The position numbers and the translations under genes were made by a program. Below the pieces are notes generated by a model. It was given only the letters and a program-made list of their open reading frames with translations, did no database searches and was not told the DNA's origin. A DNA stretch of 64,000 bases from Escherichia phage Mizar. Each line of letters starts with the position of its first letter. The first letter of the stretch is position 1. The stretch is from the sequence record PV714129.1, one strand, 5' to 3'. Positions 775 to 13,689 of this stretch are shown in pieces.

Positions 775-831
775 AATTTCCTCCAAGTAGTTGATAGATG
801 TATAGTATCAAAGTCCTTGGAGGAAGTAAAC
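775..831 (-). promoter_or_regulatory. PeSL-like early promoter cassette upstream of denV
   Basis: Minus strand GTTTAC -N18- TACTAT, leader CATCTATCAACTACTTGGAGGAAATT-ATG; 10-bp inverted repeat TTCCTCCAAG/CTTGGAGGAA brackets the -10 and contains the SD. Confidence 0.6.
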
Positions 832-832
832 A

Positions 833-1129
833 CTATTTTTCTGAAGCGCCTGAAATATATTTTTCAAGACGTTGTTTCATCAGCGAGCCGTTCTTAGCGA
901 TTTCTTCTGGTTTATCGCACATACGCAACAAGGCTTCAAGCTTAGCGATATCGCTGGTACGTTCAAATTTGCGAGTATCTATCTTACTAGCAAGTTCAGA
1001 AATACGTGCTAATAGACTTTCAGCTTCAACCAAAGCTGCACCTAGCTTAGTTGCAAATGTGTCAGTAGCTTCGTTAAGAATAGATTCTGATAAAAATTCA
1101 CTATATGTTTTCATATATACGCTTTCCAA
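833..1129 (-). CDS. putative internal head protein, CTS-like N-terminus [10 protein letters not shown]
   Basis: 98 aa ORF between e and denV, where T4 carries ipIII/ipII; N-terminal CTS-like decapeptide ending L-S-E. Confidence 0.5.
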
Positions 1130-1599
1130 GTTCCTGTTTTAAATGTTGAGATTACGCGTTTCGCTCGATTAGGTGTCTGACGGTACCATTTAGATTGGGC
1201 TAGATTTACTGCCGCTTCATCCCAACGTTTCTGTTGAAGCATACGAAGAGAATTAGTAAAACCAGCGACGCCTGCTACACCCATTTGGAAGACCATATTG
1301 ACCAATGCACACCGACGAACTGCATCTAAAGAATCATATACCGGTTTAAGTTTAGCGTTACCCAAGATTCCGCGGACGGCTTTATCAACGTCTTCATTAA
1401 ATAGCTTTTCAGCCTCATCAAGGGTAATTGTACCGTTGCATTTACGACCGATCATTCTGTCAAGTTCAGCTTTAGCTACGGCTAAAGACGGGTTCTTTGT
1501 TACTAAATGGCCTATGCCAATCGTCCAAAAGCCTTCAGTGTCTTTGTATAAAGTCAGTCTAAGACCTTCGTCATTACGAAGCATTTCAAATATATTCAT
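1111..1599 (-). CDS. e: lysozyme (endolysin, T4 e homolog)
   Basis: [32 protein letters not shown]... matches T4 lysozyme with catalytic E11/D20/T26 context; start set at ATG 1599 (MNIF) after GGGAGG. Confidence 0.92.
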
Positions 1600-1600
1600 A

Positions 1601-1626
1601 ATACCTCCCACGTTTATAGGAGGTAT
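1601..1626 (-). promoter_or_regulatory. SD-sequestering hairpin upstream of lysozyme gene e
   Basis: Inverted repeat ATACCTCC...GGAGGTAT whose 3' arm is the GGAGG SD of e; same architecture as the T4 e translational control element. Confidence 0.55.
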
Positions 1627-1633
1627 TTATTAC

Positions 1634-2092
1634 TTATAGGAGGGTAGTGAGCACCTTATATAACGATTTGCCCATTACATATTCCCATTGAGAAGGTTTA
1701 ATTAAAGCGAATGCATCAAATTCAGGAATCTGTCGTCCGCCTTGGAATGTATGATAGGAATTACAAACACTGTTTCTGAATTGCTCGTGCTCTACAGGGA
1801 TGGTATATAGGAACAGATGAATATTCTTATTGTCTGAGTAATGATGTTCACCTAGGTCTTTCAGGAAGGCAGGGTCATATTGTGTAAACCCAGTTTCTTC
1901 TTCGCATTCACGAATAGCGGCTTCAATAGGAGATTCGCCAGGTTCGACACGGCCTTTAGGAATATCCCACCGATGAGTTAATGCACCTTTAGGACGAGAA
2001 CCAGTTACACGCCCCATGAATAATTCTTTATCTTCGGTAAGGAAAATAATACCGGCTGATAGCTCTTTCACTTTATTTTTCTTACTCATCAT
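1634..2092 (-). CDS. nudE: Nudix hydrolase
   Basis: Nudix box G-x5-E-x7-REC-EEETG present (GRVEPGESPIEAAIRECEEETG); syntenic with T4 nudE (e.1) next to e. Confidence 0.85.
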   Translation of the reverse strand: MMSKKNKVKELSAGIIFLTEDKELFMGRVTGSRPKGALTHRWDIPKGRVEPGESPIEAAIRECEEETGFTQYDPAFLKDLGEHHYSDNKNIHLFLYTIPVEHEQFRNSVCNSYHTFQGGRQIPEFDAFALIKPSQWEYVMGKSLYKVLTTLL

Positions 2093-2333
2093 CTCGGTCC
2101 CATGATTTGGCCATTAATTCGGACATAAATTCTTCAATGCGCGTTTCTTTAGATGGACTTTCACTATTAGAGACCGCAAGTTTGTAATCTGCAATAGGAC
2201 AGAACATATCAAGGTCCGTATTAAGGTCGTCTTTGATTTTTTCTTCTGACACATCTTTATCATATGTGTACAGATAACTATCACATGATTCTGATTTAAT
2301 GTAAATTGCTATACTCATCTCAAATTCCTGCAT
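2082..2333 (-). CDS. hypothetical protein (83 aa)
   Basis: ORF in operon-like tight packing; start ATG overlaps the Cys codon of the upstream ORF C-terminal motif. Confidence 0.4.
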   Translation of the reverse strand: MQEFEMSIAIYIKSESCDSYLYTYDKDVSEEKIKDDLNTDLDMFCPIADYKLAVSNSESPSKETRIEEFMSELMAKSWDRDDE

Positions 2334-2743
2334 TCGGTAATAAAACGTTCAACTTCATTATTCTTGGCTTTTATCTTGTCTTTATGTTCTTGTAAACTAC
2401 TTTTAATAAGATTAATAATGATGGCGGCGGTACCGCCGCCAATGATGCCACCAACAACACTTACGATACTAGATGCTAATAAGATAGCAATAATATCAAC
2501 AAAACCGAAAGAACTCACCTTAGTACTGAAAAACCATACCGACGGTACAAATATAATCCATCCTGTTATCCATTGGCACTTATTGAAAAACTTTTCAAGC
2601 TCAGCTTGAGTTGTTCGTATTACTTCATCGATAGGTTGATATCCATTAATGTATCTGTTCACGATAATACCTGCTGGCTGGTCGATTTTAAATTCTTGGC
2701 AAATACGTTTCACTAAGTAGGATGGACATCCTGTCCAATCCAC
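2315..2743 (-). CDS. membrane protein with C-terminal ERFITECR motif
   Basis: Hydrophobic segments (WITGWIIFVPSVWFF, IIAILLASSIVSVVGGIIGG); C-terminal motif shared with four other ORFs; start codon uncertain (no in-frame ATG, GTG at 2743). Confidence 0.4.
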   Translation of the reverse strand: MDWTGCPSYLVKRICQEFKIDQPAGIIVNRYINGYQPIDEVIRTTQAELEKFFNKCQWITGWIIFVPSVWFFSTKVSSFGFVDIIAILLASSIVSVVGGIIGGGTAAIIINLIKSSLQEHKDKIKAKNNEVERFITECRNLR

Positions 2744-12058: not shown

Positions 12059-12349
12059 TCACCGTACCATATTAATGTAATTATACTCAATACATTCAAG
12101 ATTTAAAGGATTCTTGAAAATATCATATTCAAGAGGACCTTTTTCTGTTTCAATAAAGAAATCAAAGTTCACGCTATTAAATTTACGGTCTTCCCAAAGT
12201 AATTTAACCTGTGAAGATGAACGGTCAATATAAACCTTTTCAACTTCAAAGAGGGTCAGAATACCGTAGTCATCAACTAGTGCTTTAGCTGCACGTTGGT
12301 CGCTTTCATAACCGTTCTTGACGGATGATACTTTAGCATAAAGAATCAT
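12059..12349 (-). CDS. hypothetical protein (96 aa)
   Basis: ORF tightly packed with neighbours. Confidence 0.45.
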   Translation of the reverse strand: MILYAKVSSVKNGYESDQRAAKALVDDYGILTLFEVEKVYIDRSSSQVKLLWEDRKFNSVNFDFFIETEKGPLEYDIFKNPLNLECIEYNYINMVR

Positions 12350-12726
12350 GAATGTTCCACCACTTCAAAGGTGTGAGCATCAACAATATGATACCAGTCA
12401 AAATTTTCTTCAGCGTTTTTATAAATTTCGCGAAGAGCCTCAACAGTTTTTCCTGTAGCAACAAGGTCGTCAATACCACCAAGAGGATAACAGTCATAAC
12501 CAGCAAACAGAAGGAAATTAATAGTTTCTGTAGGTTCTGGATGCAAAACACCATTATCATCTACCACTTCAAAGAAAGTGTAAGAAGGAGTACAAGTTTT
12601 AATCCAGGCCCATGCTTGAGCTGCTGAATCAAACGGATTACGGAATAAACGACAATCCGGGTCTTTAGAAGGATTTGCTTCAAAATCCGCATATACATGA
12701 TATTTCATTTTACTCACCTTTTGCAA
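12346..12726 (-). CDS. hypothetical protein (126 aa)
   Basis: ORF; ATGA-type overlap with downstream ORF. Confidence 0.45.
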   Translation of the reverse strand: MQKVSKMKYHVYADFEANPSKDPDCRLFRNPFDSAAQAWAWIKTCTPSYTFFEVVDDNGVLHPEPTETINFLLFAGYDCYPLGGIDDLVATGKTVEALREIYKNAEENFDWYHIVDAHTFEVVEHS

Positions 12727-12895
12727 TTTTATCCATAACGATAGCGATTAAGCCGATTAGAAATGCTACTACCAATGAGATAGAATTTTCTGTTGTTGTC
12801 AGTAGTCCACAAATGAATCCTACAAACATCGAAAAACTAAAAGCCATTGAAGCAATTACTACAGCAACATTACGAATCAGTTCAGCGCGTTTCAT
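12710..12895 (-). CDS. small membrane protein (61 aa)
   Basis: Two hydrophobic segments; downstream of PeSL-like promoter. Confidence 0.45.
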   Translation of the reverse strand: MKRAELIRNVAVVIASMAFSFSMFVGFICGLLTTTENSISLVVAFLIGLIAIVMDKIAKGE

Positions 12896-12954
12896 TTTAT
12901 TCTCCTCAGTAGTTGATAGGGTAATAGTATCACCACCCTATCTAAAAGTAAACG
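12896..12954 (-). promoter_or_regulatory. PeSL-like early promoter cassette
   Basis: GTTTAC -N18- TGaTACTAT then TACCCTATCAACTACTGAGGAG; inverted repeat GATAGGGT/ACCCTATC. Confidence 0.55.
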
Positions 12955-12964
12955 GTTTTATAAA

Positions 12965-13273
12965 CTATTTTATTCCGCGTGATGCAATCGTATTCTGCCG
13001 TTTAACACCAGTTTGTTTAAAGTCATGACTGTCGATTTGATCGGTGCGAGCAACTCCGAATGATGATTTAATCTTAGCTTTAGATCCTTTAGTTATAGAA
13101 ATAAACATCTCGGAAGACCCTTTCTTAAAGTCTGATGCAGATACTTCAACACCGTTCTTAGCAAGTGACCTCAGAATTGCATCCGCGTACTCATCATCAA
13201 GACTCGCTTGAGTATTAATAACAAATGTCTTTGGTGCAGCCGCTTCATTGATAAATTCTTTATAGGTTTTCAT
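12965..13273 (-). CDS. putative internal head protein, CTS-like N-terminus MKTYKEFINE
   Basis: 102 aa; CTS-like decapeptide ending I-N-E; own PeSL-like promoter. Confidence 0.5.
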   Translation of the reverse strand: MKTYKEFINEAAAPKTFVINTQASLDDEYADAILRSLAKNGVEVSASDFKKGSSEMFISITKGSKAKIKSSFGVARTDQIDSHDFKQTGVKRQNTIASRGIK

Positions 13274-13334
13274 TTTATTTTCCTAATTAATTTTGATAGG
13301 ACTACTATAACATAGTCCTATTAGCATGTAAACT
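13274..13334 (-). promoter_or_regulatory. PeSL-like early promoter cassette
   Basis: GTTTACA -N17- TATAGT then AGTCCTATCAAAA; inverted repeat ATAGGACTA/TAGTCCTAT. Confidence 0.55.
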
Positions 13335-13336
13335 AC

Positions 13337-13624
13337 TTACAGAAGGGTTTTTGCAATAATTTTAAGCTGAGCTACAGAAATATGCTTAGCTTTAAACAGT
13401 GCGGTCTCTTCGGCCGGAGAGATAACAACAGTAGCGCCATCTTTCTTAGCAGACCATCCATCCCCTAAGTAAACAGTACCTTTTACTTCTTCACCATCAA
13501 CCAGACTAATCATCGGTTTACCCTCACGTCCTTTATTTGCTTTAATAACTTCGGAAGTAAGGGTTGCTTCGGTCAGAGTAGAAACGTTAGCAACAGGTGA
13601 TATAAATTCTTTATAGGTTTTCAT
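13337..13624 (-). CDS. ipI: putative internal protein I homolog (95 aa), N-terminus MKTYKEFIS
   Basis: Same size and position (directly downstream of 57B) as T4 ipI; CTS-like N-terminus with LTE site; own PeSL-like promoter. Confidence 0.55.
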   Translation of the reverse strand: MKTYKEFISPVANVSTLTEATLTSEVIKANKGREGKPMISLVDGEEVKGTVYLGDGWSAKKDGATVVISPAEETALFKAKHISVAQLKIIAKTLL

Positions 13625-13689
13625 TTTATTTCCTTGAGGTTGTTTATTTGATAGGATGATAGTATCACACCATCATCCTTATGTAAACT
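13625..13689 (-). promoter_or_regulatory. PeSL-like early promoter cassette upstream of ipI-like gene
   Basis: GTTTACA -N17- TGaTACTAT then CATCCTATCAAA; inverted repeat GGATGATGGT/ACTATCATCC. Confidence 0.55.

Follow-up and report, generated by a model that had tools for sequence, protein, structure and literature searches.

Early promoter cassettes in the genome segment

The window, a 64,000-nucleotide stretch of DNA from Escherichia phage Mizar (PV714129.1), is a segment of a Mosigvirus (RB69-like, T4-type) genome, with 95–97% identity to Mosigvirus phages and the gene order 1/57A/57B/IP/.../tRNAs/.../nudE/e/IP/denV. A preliminary description had proposed that at least ten copies of one promoter and leader unit punctuate its accessory region. 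All ten named sites are present, all on the minus strand, and we refer to each by the first base of its −35 box, which is GTTTAC unless another sequence is given: 831, 3858 (GTGTAC), 4126, 5428, 8242 (ATTTAC), 8528 (ATGTAC), 9088, 12953, 13333 and 13688. Scanning the window with a 41-nt template (GTTTAC-N18-TAYWRT-N3-CCTATCAA, at most three mismatches) returned 10 matches, on the minus strand only, relative to 0.03 expected from shuffled sequences. Eight of these were sites already described. The other two were minus-strand copies beyond the described region, at 46094–46153 before an 89-aa ORF and at 61729–61787 before a 97-aa ORF, the latter cassette lying directly downstream of alt; their hairpins are weak and, at 61787, bulged. 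CCTATCAA by itself matched 7 times (2.4 expected), always on the minus strand and within 4086–13655. The cassettes are the largest direct-repeat families in positions 1–15000. A weaker promoter-like site without the CCTATCAA leader (GTTTAC-N18-TATAAT; 6287–6316, minus strand) lies inside ORF 6224–6583.

Each unit is approximately 60–90 bp long and begins with an A-rich tract that often holds the stop codon of the preceding gene, followed by the −35 box GTTTAC(A/T), a spacer, usually TGn, and a −10 box TACTAT or TATAGT. The conserved discriminator and start region CCTATCAA follows 3′ of the −10, with a 20–30-nt leader containing a GGAG-type Shine–Dalgarno sequence, and then the ATG. The extended −10 (TGn) ascribed to the copies was found at eight of the ten sites but not at 5428 and 8242, and the conserved leader holds at most sites but not at 8242, which lacks CCTATCAA. 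The Shine–Dalgarno sequence had been placed 20–30 nt before the ATG, which proved incorrect: it lies approximately 5–10 nt away, and the −10-to-ATG distance is 27–41 nt.

Each conserved block can be assigned to a known promoter or translation element. T4 early promoters form a UP/−35/TGn/−10 class with additional consensus (Hinton 2010, PMC2988021). The cassettes share their A-rich upstream tract, GTTTAC, 17-bp spacing (counted from TTTACx), TGn and extended consensus 3′ of the −10, and the promoter part is no different; a hairpin comes on top in some of these promoters only. Orthologous promoters occur in T4 at ipI, trna.4, e.8, e.6, ipIII, ipII, denV and vs.3. We infer promoter activity, start sites and read-through RNA from the consensus and from T4.

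Hairpins at the −10 box and the translation start

The copies had also been described as carrying, in most cases, an inverted repeat around the −10. Every quoted arm pair is present, with one G·T pair each in GGTCTGTAGT/ACTATAGACC and GGATGATGGT/ACTATCATCC. At seven sites a hairpin encloses the −10 (−12.6 to −18.2 kcal/mol), whereas 8528 and 9088 have no significant hairpin; folding is significant in 8 of the 12 window copies (z −3.5 to −8.7). The seven, all on the minus strand, are the cassettes before the 101-aa membrane-protein ORF 3495–3800 (cassette 3801–3858, −10 TATAGT; hairpin 3819–3848, core ATAGGACTA/TAGTCCTAT, −15.5 kcal/mol, z −6.0), the 66-aa ORF 3859–4059 (4060–4126; hairpin 4091–4119, GGTCTGTAGT/ACTATAGACC, −15.5 kcal/mol, z −4.8), the 79-aa ORF 5131–5370 (5371–5428; hairpin 5390–5417, GATAGGGCTAC/GTAGTCCTATC with one G·T, −18.2 kcal/mol, z −8.7), the e.6-like ORF 7578–8171 (a variant, 8172–8242, −35 ATTTAC(A), −10 TATAAT; hairpin approximately 8201–8232, arms GAGAGCA/TGCTCTC around the −10, −12.6 kcal/mol, z −3.5), a trna.4-like 61-aa ORF (12896–12953; hairpin 12915–12942, GATAGGGTGGTG/TATTACCCTATC, −16.0 kcal/mol, z −4.5) and the internal-protein genes 12965–13273 (13274–13333; hairpin 13296–13321, −12.9 kcal/mol, z −4.2) and 13337–13624 (13625–13688; hairpin 13653–13679, GGATGATGGT/ACTATCATCC, −15.4 kcal/mol, z −5.6). 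The 26-nt hairpin core is identical between 13333 and 3858. The T4 ortholog of the 12953 cassette has an identical 3′ arm and a 5′ arm in another register, and the leader of this cassette, GGAGAATAAAA, matches the RegB cleavage consensus.

The 8528 cassette (8470–8528, minus strand) precedes a Frd3-like 75-aa ORF and folds with a z of −1.9. The cassette at 9088 (9032–9088, minus strand), before the 167-aa ORF 8528–9031, has the −10 TAGTAT, a spacer shorter by one base and no internal or −10-bracketing hairpin (z +0.4). A canonical GC-rich terminator hairpin on the minus strand (GGGGACTTCGGTCCCC, then the short T run TTTAGGGGG; 9120–9135) lies 32 nt upstream of the −35 of this cassette, and the two form a stem-loop-upstream-of-promoter arrangement. 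The hairpin is missing from these two sites and from about one in two related cassettes, and so appears to be dispensable for promoter function.

Where hairpins occur, the spacer, whose sequence is not fixed by the promoter, pairs far better with its own −10 and discriminator than with the corresponding parts of another copy. For the window copies, own 5′ and 3′ halves gave a mean of −11.0 kcal/mol versus −6.5 kcal/mol when halves were mixed into chimeras (permutation p < 5e-5). In a set of 67 divergent representatives drawn from public viral contigs, 16 folded at −10 kcal/mol or below, versus 4.6% of chimeras (p < 5e-5). Across approximately 170 related cassettes the arms covary, with the three bases 3′ of the −10 and the spacer changing together (AGC/GGGCT, AAC/GGGTT, TAC/GGGTA, and further AGT/GGACT, CTT/GGAAG and GAA/GGTTC), and one and the same 3′ arm has 5′ partners in differing registers. 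Arm sequences free of promoter constraint recur unchanged at loci far apart, and an unrelated phage family has them too. Mismatches within stems were G·T in 43 cases and A·C in 4, an excess that lies partly opposite the −10 and could there have arisen because a further −10-like hexamer in the spacer is avoided. By cluster, G·T was preferred in 16 of 21 and A·C in none, and the sense strand gave the better fold in 68 of 87 cassettes, counts that are not fully independent since the compared cassettes are related to one another. That G·T is accepted within stems and A·C is not indicates that selection for the fold acts on the sense strand.

The denV cassette (775–831, minus strand; −35 GTTTAC, TGa, −10 TACTAT, leader ACATCTATCAAC) has a different, long-range hairpin, in which spacer positions 816–825 (TTCCTCCAAG) pair with the Shine–Dalgarno region at 778–787 (CTTGGAGGAA; −19.2 kcal/mol, z −5.6). 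The same design with other arm sequences occurs in T4 and other T4-like phages: 35 distinct denV upstream regions contain helices of 9–13 bp that join the spacer or −10 to the Shine–Dalgarno sequence, with at least 10 arm sequences. Helices of at least 8 bp that join the translation start region to sequence 5′ of the transcription start were found in 12% of 142 promoter units, versus 1.8% of chimeras. In T4 e, soc, 49 and I-TevI, hairpins with an internal promoter hide the translation start region (reviewed in PMC3014915); the classical e-gene hairpin lies in the window at 1601–1626. Like these, the denV cassette and the approximately 12% of related units have a 5′ arm upstream of the promoter's start site and a 3′ arm comprising the Shine–Dalgarno sequence and/or the AUG. 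Translation would then be expected only for transcripts begun inside the hairpin. The internal promoter differs in being an early sigma-70 promoter rather than late TATAAATA, so the switch would operate inside the early period, distinguishing read-through RNA from RNA begun at the gene's own promoter, and would not be one of early versus late.

It is possible, though we consider it unlikely, that the hairpins are intrinsic terminators or attenuators of the upstream gene, as published for RB49/phi1 PeSLs. Terminator activity was measured for an RB49-type stem-loop (Arbiol 2010, PMC2839356), the hairpins lie directly 3′ of upstream stop codons, and the sense-strand bias fits an RNA element. A separate upstream terminator-like hairpin was also found in only 2 of 100 strong-hairpin cassettes versus 11 of 93 in the comparison set (p 0.008). 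However, the stems, rich in AT, lead into CCTATCAA(A/C) instead of a U tract; a terminator scan returned 7552–7569 and 9120–9135 and no cassette hairpin; T-even stem-loops were termed weaker (Arbiol 2010, PMC2839356); and the denV class clearly aims at the Shine–Dalgarno sequence.

Cassette edges and module exchange

We compared the window with six close relatives. Eight of 28 distinct breakpoints fell inside cassettes, which make up 4.5% of the sequence (p ~2e-5), in line with the proposal that cassettes are enriched at indel boundaries. Joints lay at the −35 box or within CCTATCAA. Position 3858/3859 is a synteny edge in five relatives, and the 4126 cassette with ORF 3859–4059 is a module missing from four of the six, its deletion joint lying at the two −35 boxes. 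The 8528 cassette is a recombinant of two cassettes that bracket an extra 165-nt ORF in phage pEK20, with the crossover in or near TATCAA; the distant 46153 copy and the pEK20 cassette of this extra ORF have identical leaders. Further edges lie at 9094 (a replacement in two relatives, at the 9088 cassette), at 12905 (12953 cassette), at 13250–13334 (13333 cassette) and at 13602, in the internal-protein leader of the gene served by the 13688 cassette. The −35 box of the 6287–6316 site is a deletion edge in two relatives, and the 3858 and 13333 cassettes, with their identical cores, lie at the ends of a 9.4-kb stretch that differs in O157 typing phage 6. Edges outside cassettes include a homing-endonuclease insertion (10509|11384), 2095|2315 and 11549|12061. 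BLAST segment ends tend toward any shared intergenic sequence; the enrichment thus indicates that cassettes bound modules and does not prove that they cause exchange.

The claim that each downstream ORF was independently acquired did not hold, as the denV, e.6-like and trna.4-like ORFs keep their promoter position in T4. Only approximately 4 of the 10 downstream ORFs are present or absent, or replaced, among the relatives examined: 3859–4059, the two internal-protein genes and, in part, 8528–9031.

These features bear on two improbable explanations. One is that the cassettes are plain early promoters, alike through selection for strong sigma-70 recognition, with incidental inverted repeats. 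All conserved blocks are indeed known elements, hairpins are missing from 2 of 10 sites and about half of related cassettes, and several downstream genes that retain their promoter in T4 require no movement. Fold z-scores down to −8.7, own-versus-chimera differences (p < 5e-5), arm covariation in several registers, promoter-unconstrained arms that recur at distant loci and in an unrelated phage family, and breakpoints enriched within cassettes count against this account.

The other explanation, to which we give equally little weight, is a DNA-level signal: a cruciform or single-strand hairpin at which recombination concentrates or a nuclease acts, or else an operator bound by a dimeric protein. 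Breakpoints lie in or beside the repeats, and structure is kept while sequence varies, much as integron attC sites have conserved structure and variable sequence. One RB49 crossover was mapped to the loop, with speculation that a specific protein binds there (Arbiol 2010, PMC2839356). Freely varying arms nevertheless argue against a sequence-specific operator, the 43:4 ratio would leave the opposite strand with C·A mismatches and so disfavours a two-strand cruciform, the observed joints fall where conservation is highest (the −35 box and CCTATCAA), which simple homologous exchange would predict, and no recombinase gene accompanying the cassettes was found among the window genes.

Proposed role of the cassettes

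We think it likely that the cassettes are T4-type early (sigma-70) promoter units, the T-even form of PeSL, which act on read-through RNA and aid module exchange. PeSL-type features are already known in the T4 family, where they mark sites of gene-module swapping. The preliminary description had proposed this identity; its architecture (T4 early promoter, overlapping stem-loop, leader, Shine–Dalgarno sequence and ATG) and edge enrichment were borne out, and independent acquisition was not. Transcription is predicted to start approximately 7 nt 3′ of the −10, at the A/T of TATCAA. As this start would be inside or just past the hairpin, only read-through RNA could fold it: the 5′ arm would never be in the cassette's own transcript, and the hairpin would form only in RNA from upstream genes. 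The probable site of action of the hairpin is thus this read-through RNA, in which it may shield the downstream gene from upstream transcription. The denV-class hairpin would conceal the ribosome binding site in such RNA, and a −10-bracketing hairpin may attenuate transcription, pause polymerase or serve processing or stability. That the latter hairpins have no contact with the Shine–Dalgarno sequence and no U tract counts against this reading. In any location of the module, the level of expression would then depend on the gene's own promoter. The shared 40–70 bp could provide homology for T4's recombination system, and homologous exchange would lead to insertion, deletion or replacement of modules of cassette plus ORF, above all of internal-protein genes.

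At the internal-protein locus itself, Repoila et al. reportedly described in 1994 a conserved early promoter of approximately 70 bp with an inverted repeat flanking T-even internal-protein genes. By this account, the internal-protein cassettes of the window share both locus and element with those T-even units: genes with an MKTY..EF leader are likewise flanked by promoter/inverted-repeat units and shuffled between phages. In the window, the unit also precedes denV, e.6-like, trna.4-like and Frd3-like ORFs and ORFs of unknown function, and recurs 30–50 kb away, at 46153 and 61787.

The elements of Repoila 1994 were called PeSL-like analogs (Arbiol 2010, PMC2839356), and PeSLs are known from RB49/phi1, PST/T4 and nt-1/KVP40 (Arbiol 2010, PMC2839356; Comeau 2014, PMC4122927). 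In most of them the stem-loop either sits between the two promoter boxes or extends over the −10 (Arbiol 2010, PMC2839356). Like them, the cassettes are composite intergenic units with an AT-rich tract in which the preceding gene ends, an early sigma-70-type promoter with a stem-loop between its −35 and −10 or over the −10, and the Shine–Dalgarno sequence and ATG of a small gene, and they cluster in hyperplastic regions at indel or replacement edges between close relatives. Unlike PeSLs with TTGACA ... TATAAT and poly-G/poly-C stems, those of the window have the T4 form GTTTAC ... TACTAT/TATAGT and AT-rich, variable stems with no U tract after them. PST/T4 stem-loops have been drawn just upstream of the promoter (Comeau 2014, PMC4122927), whereas in the window, and at T4 ipI, ipII and ipIII, they overlap the −10.

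Recurrent promoter cassettes in an internal-protein locus

Positions 1-15500 share 95-97% identity with Mosigvirus (RB69-like, T4-type) phages such as FP43, ATK47, pEK20 and LF82-41. Read on the minus strand from 15000 to 1, the gene order is dNMP kinase (gene 1), 57A, 57B, two internal protein (IP) genes, small ORFs, tRNAs, a segB-like homing endonuclease, another IP-like ORF, e.x-type ORFs, nudE, lysozyme e, an IP gene, denV and a further IP gene. This segment is the T4 57A-to-denV early region, one of two internal-protein loci.

The preliminary description had proposed that a cassette made up of a T4-type early promoter, an overlapping hairpin, a leader, a Shine-Dalgarno sequence and an ATG recurs at least ten times on the minus strand between 775 and 13689. 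All ten sites are present on that strand, and we name each by the first base of its -35 box: 831, 3858, 4126, 5428, 8242, 8528, 9088, 12953, 13333 and 13688. Scanning the 64-kb window with a 41-nt template (GTTTAC-N18-TAYWRT-N3-CCTATCAA, up to three mismatches), in which CCTATCAA is the conserved discriminator and start stretch after the -10 box, gave ten matches, all on the minus strand, compared with 0.03 expected from dinucleotide shuffles. Eight of these are sites already proposed, and the other two, at 46153 and at 61787 just downstream of alt (both minus), lie beyond the range first described. Variant cassettes were found at 8242 (ATTTAC, TATAAT and no CCTATCAA) and 9088 (-10 TAGTAT and a spacer one base shorter). 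By itself, CCTATCAA occurs seven times compared with 2.4 expected, always on the minus strand and within 4086-13655. The largest direct-repeat families in 1-15000 are the cassettes (D1, D2 and D5) and the IP leader (D4 and D6). A generic sigma-70 scan was uninformative as a count (60 matches compared with 51 expected).

The cassettes have the layout of T4 early promoters, with an A-rich UP-like tract, a -35 GTTTAC, TGn, a TAnnnT-type -10 and the right spacing, and T4 has orthologous promoters. The extended -10 (TGn) ascribed to the copies is present at eight of the ten sites and absent from the remaining two. T4 early promoters form a UP/-35/TGn/-10 class with additional consensus (Hinton 2010, PMC2988021), and the promoter part of the cassette is, judged by its sequence, of this class. 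T4 early promoters fire as soon as infection begins, using host RNA polymerase that is still unmodified. The ATG lies 27-41 nt from the -10, and the Shine-Dalgarno sequence 5-10 nt before the ATG rather than the 20-30 nt initially given. A literature search found no T4 genome-wide start-site data set; promoter geometry would make the A/T of TATCAA, about 7 nt past the -10, the first transcribed base.

Some cassette leaders, for example GGAGAATAAAA at 12953 (12896-12920), fit GGAGRAYARAA, the RegB/S1 cleavage consensus of T4 early mRNAs (PMC1702504), and RegB probably inactivates messages with such leaders. In T4, the Shine-Dalgarno sequence of denV has been reported to be RegB-resistant. The IP leader (MKTY[KQS]EF; MYTFNEF at 9767) opens five minus-strand ORFs (24-419, 833-1129, 9141-9767, 12965-13273 and 13337-13624), and the first of these directly follows denV and has no cassette of its own. 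Three tandem small ORFs (5433-5630, 5640-5912 and 5922-6227, minus) share a C-terminal motif, GWV[SA]SS..C, have no intervening promoter cassettes and look like a small paralog family; a related stretch (repeat family D7) lies at 8718-8757, within ORF 8528-9031.

Hairpins encoded by the promoter spacer

Folding of the 40 nt after the -35 box with RNA parameters bore out the proposal that an inverted repeat brackets the -10 in most copies. Seven of the ten sites gave z scores between -3.5 and -8.7: 3858 (-15.5 kcal/mol, z -6.0), 4126 (-15.5 kcal/mol, z -4.8), 5428 (-18.2 kcal/mol, z -8.7), 8242 (-12.6 kcal/mol, z -3.5), 12953 (-16.0 kcal/mol, z -4.5), 13333 (-12.9 kcal/mol, z -4.2) and 13688 (-15.4 kcal/mol, z -5.6). 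Folding at 8528, 9088, 46153 and 61787 was not above shuffles. Beyond the seven, 831 pairs its spacer with the Shine-Dalgarno region, 9088 is preceded by a separate canonical GC-rich terminator hairpin at 9120-9135, and 8528 has no stem-loop. We do not claim spacer/Shine-Dalgarno pairing at 9088, which is weak and not above shuffles (z +0.65). In an Rfam search three tRNAs were the sole matches, and no family covers the cassette hairpins.

The spacers fit their own 3' halves. The mean energy of the window copies was -11.0 kcal/mol, compared with -6.5 kcal/mol for all 132 chimeras joining a spacer to the 3' half of another copy, and this own-pair mean was unmatched in 20,000 permutations. For a wider sample we scanned public viral contigs with the exact template and obtained 120 loci, mostly in T4-like genomes of about 170 kb, with 84 distinct 41-mers. 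In these cassettes the spacer covaries with the three unconstrained bases that separate the -10 from CCTATCAA (AGC/GGGCT, AAC/GGGTT, TAC/GGGTA, AGT/GGACT, CTT/GGAAG, and GAA or GGA/GGTTC). Of 67 representatives with differences at more than 8 of 35 positions, 16 had an own hairpin of -10 kcal/mol or below, compared with 4.6% of chimeras (p < 5e-5). The covariation and the chimera energies together uphold the suggestion that the arms differ between copies while remaining complementary. One 3' arm, TACTATTACCCTATC, has 5' partners in at least four different spacer registers, and the register of the 5' arm differs between the T4 trna.4 promoter and its ortholog at 12953. The 3' arm is thus largely set by the promoter consensus, and the spacer has been shaped again and again to complement it. 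Among 170 distinct cassettes the energies were bimodal, about half at or below -12 kcal/mol and about 40% weaker than -6 kcal/mol; the hairpin is a frequent option and a non-obligatory part of the cassette.

To determine which strand folds, we took as 5' arm the spacer portion outside TGn and scored G·T and A·C mismatches equally. The 70 stems with at least 7 Watson-Crick pairs contained 43 internal G·T and 4 internal A·C pairs, although several of the G·T pairs lie opposite the -10, where a perfect complement would make a second -10-like hexamer in the spacer. G·T was in excess in 16 of 21 sequence clusters and A·C in none. Of 87 strong cassettes, 68 had a sense fold better than the antisense fold, and 5 had a poorer one. 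This bias argues for a fold in sense-strand RNA, or in an equivalent single DNA strand. With a start about 7 nt past the -10, the 5' arm would lie upstream of the start, so that the hairpin would be restricted to RNA reading through from upstream. We considered a protein operator and a two-strand cruciform and set both aside, given the variable arm sequences and the one-strand bias of the mismatches.

Termination is a further possible function, as terminator activity has been measured for a G/C-rich stem-loop of RB49 (Arbiol 2010, PMC2839356). The cassette hairpins are not of the intrinsic terminator type (a GC-rich hairpin plus U tract): CCTATCAA or ATCAA follows their AT-rich stems, and a terminator scan listed 7552-7569 and 9120-9135 and no cassette hairpin. 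A separate upstream terminator-like hairpin accompanied 2 of 100 strong-hairpin cassettes compared with 11 of 93 others (Fisher p 0.008 in a sample that is not independent), which fits the internal and upstream hairpins being alternatives. The difference appears only under this stricter terminator-like criterion, as folding energies of the 70-nt stretch preceding the -35 did not distinguish strong- from weak-hairpin cassettes (p 0.29). Taken together, these data make attenuation by the -10-bracketing hairpins possible but unproven.

A predicted early promoter inside a Shine-Dalgarno-hiding hairpin

At denV (831), the spacer arm TTCCTCCAAG pairs with the Shine-Dalgarno region CTTGGAGGAA, and the 63-nt unit folds at -19.2 kcal/mol (z -5.6). 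The T4 denV promoter has a like design with different arms, TCTCCTGTAG/CTACAGGAGA (-18.0 kcal/mol, z -3.8). Across 35 distinct denV upstream regions from viral contigs we found two hairpin layouts. In the first, the spacer pairs with the Shine-Dalgarno sequence, as also in CTCCGTTTG/CAAACGGAG and TCTCCTGTG/CACAGGAGA; in the second, the Shine-Dalgarno sequence and AUG pair with a 5' arm that overlaps the -10 and discriminator, examples being TATGATGTCTTCC/GGAGGACATCATG and TAGTAGTCTTCA/TGGAGACTACTA. We located these arms helix by helix; RNAalifold on a MAFFT alignment of the denV upstream regions predicted no pairs, as indels misaligned the arms. Under either layout, transcription is predicted to start within the hairpin or where its 5' arm ends, so the ribosome binding site would be hidden in read-through RNA only.

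Of the ten cassettes, only that of denV hides the start region in a hairpin with an internal promoter, and other T4-like phages conserve hairpins of this type, though with arms of different sequence. The arrangement also occurs at the T4 vs.3 early promoter (NC_000866, ~62735-62797, minus), where CCTCTTGACTG in the spacer and CAGTTAAGAGG in the Shine-Dalgarno region form the stem (-22.4 kcal/mol, z -4.8). We searched 142 representative GTTTAC-to-ATG units for helices between the translation start region and sequence upstream of the transcription start. Helices of at least 8 Watson-Crick pairs were found in 12% of units compared with 1.8% of chimeras, and helices of at least 10 pairs in 8.5% compared with 0.26%.

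A late promoter sits inside an inhibitory hairpin at T4 e, soc, 49 and I-TevI (PMC3014915). The denV cassette shares the logic of a promoter inside a start-hiding hairpin, but falls outside that class: there the internal promoter is late (TATAAATA) and provides an early-off/late-on switch, whereas denV has an early-type one. The window also contains the classical lysozyme e hairpin, at 1601-1626 (minus), where ATACCTCC/GGAGGTAT hides the Shine-Dalgarno sequence (-16.3 kcal/mol, z -3.75). Its loop holds a late-promoter-like TATAAAC, and the e hairpin lies about 800 nt from the denV early-promoter hairpin. A search of the accessible literature found no description of the denV leader hairpin.

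Module boundaries, known elements and proposed role

Six Mosigvirus relatives (pEK20, mogra, S143_2, moha, LF82-41 and O157 typing phage 6) served for a comparison with 1-15500. Eight of 28 distinct synteny breakpoints fell inside the ten cassettes, which make up 4.5% of the sequence (binomial p 2e-5), although the ends of BLAST segments naturally land in shared sequence. A further four are within the opening 25 nt of the downstream ORF, chiefly in the conserved IP leader. Four relatives lack ORF 3859-4059 together with the body of the 4126 cassette, and carry a single cassette in which the upstream flank and -35 box of 4126 are joined to the spacer and hairpin of 3858; the size and joints of this 3858/4120 indel are as expected for one cassette-plus-ORF unit. 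In pEK20 two cassettes surround an additional ORF of 165 nt, and the 8528 cassette of the window is a recombinant of the two, its crossover lying near TATCAA. Deletion or replacement also affects the IP genes 12965-13273 and 13337-13624; here the edges are at 12905, 13250-13334 and 13602. A 9.4-kb difference in O157 typing phage 6 lies between cassettes 3858 and 13333, which share an identical 26-nt hairpin core. These comparisons show modules bounded by cassettes; cassettes as the cause of exchange are not proven.

Edges unrelated to cassettes were found at 2095/2315, 11549/12061 and 10509/11384, the last being a homing-endonuclease/tRNA-Asn insertion. The interval 10510-11383, between tRNA-Arg and tRNA-Met, holds a segB-like homing-endonuclease ORF (10567-11238) and tRNA-Asn (11307-11378); both are absent in five of the six relatives, and O157 typing phage 6 is without the whole interval owing to its 9.4-kb difference. 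The conserved first 25-100 nt of the five IP-leader ORFs constitute a second type of recombination edge (323-369, 13250-13268 and 13602).

A near-identical cassette, TATACA..TGATAGGACTATGTTATAGTAGTCCTATCAAAACAAATGAGGAG, containing the 26-nt core of 3858 and 13333, is present in UPEC06 (MW250786.1, Vequintavirinae/rV5-like; ~1508-1566, minus), where it precedes an ORF without a DNA match in T4-like phages. It is shared by phages A7_1, A73, W70, A5-4 and LTH01, and in LTH01 homology starts exactly at the upstream edge of the cassette. These observations suggest that the cassette has moved between phage families.

The cassettes match published promoter-early stem-loop (PeSL) elements in architecture, location and association with indels (Arbiol 2010, PMC2839356; Comeau 2014, PMC4122927). 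They have a predicted early sigma-70-type promoter with -35 and -10 boxes about 17 bp apart, an AT-rich 5' tract that carries the preceding gene's stop codon, and a 3' end formed by the Shine-Dalgarno sequence and start codon of a small gene; indels and replacements between close relatives are associated with them. At sites other than 8528 they also have the stable stem-loop of a PeSL, which may lie between the two boxes, over one of them or a little upstream of the promoter. PeSLs are further described as having a stem-loop that terminates or attenuates transcription, and as releasing mini-circles when neighbouring elements recombine. They are not PeSLs of the strict RB49/phi1 type, which have a near-perfect TTGACA-N17-TATAAT and G(n)-loop-C(n) stems, but have a -35 GTTTAC and AT-rich variable stems. 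In Arbiol 2010 (PMC2839356), the T-even IP-locus elements of Repoila 1994 are classed as analogs, not homologs; the term was later extended to PST/T4 elements with TTTACW-N17-TAYWAT (Comeau 2014, PMC4122927). The cassettes thus belong to an element type already described. To the published descriptions examined, our analysis adds, at the level of sequence evidence, the strand bias (G·T but not A·C), which assigns the hairpin to read-through RNA, a conserved subclass in which an early promoter lies within a hairpin hiding the Shine-Dalgarno sequence, and exact recombination joints. The initial reading of PeSL-like elements associated with shuffling holds, but not its extension to every downstream gene as an independent acquisition: denV and the e.6-like and trna.4-like ORFs keep their promoters in T4, so the presence of a cassette does not in itself identify a gene as independently acquired.

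We propose that the cassette would provide a strong early promoter, that the spacer-encoded hairpin would insulate the downstream gene from upstream transcription, and that the shared sequence would supply homology for recombination. Support is good for the promoter and recombination parts, and the hairpin probably insulates the downstream gene. We put forward only tentatively, and consider rather unlikely, the broader idea that hairpins of T4-type early promoters are a general RNA-level insulator, formed in read-through transcripts only and silencing or attenuating the downstream gene, which would make cassette plus ORF a self-contained module. On this idea, silencing would act by hiding the Shine-Dalgarno sequence, clearly so at denV, T4 vs.3 and about 12% of promoter units, and in the -10-bracketing class by some other route. 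If this were true, the output of the module would be independent of where it lands, which would explain its movement within T4-like genomes and, in one case, in rV5-like (Vequintavirinae) phages. The element shows that T4-like phages package small accessory genes, including those for internal proteins that are injected and counteract host defences, in exchangeable units with their own strong promoter. Cassettes can guide the annotation of early transcription units and help to predict where close relatives will differ in gene content.

A promoter-like site, GTTTAC-N18-TATAAT, also lies inside ORF 6224-6583, at 6287-6316 (minus). Most of this ORF is deleted in moha and LF82-41, and the deletion ends exactly at the -35 box of the site.
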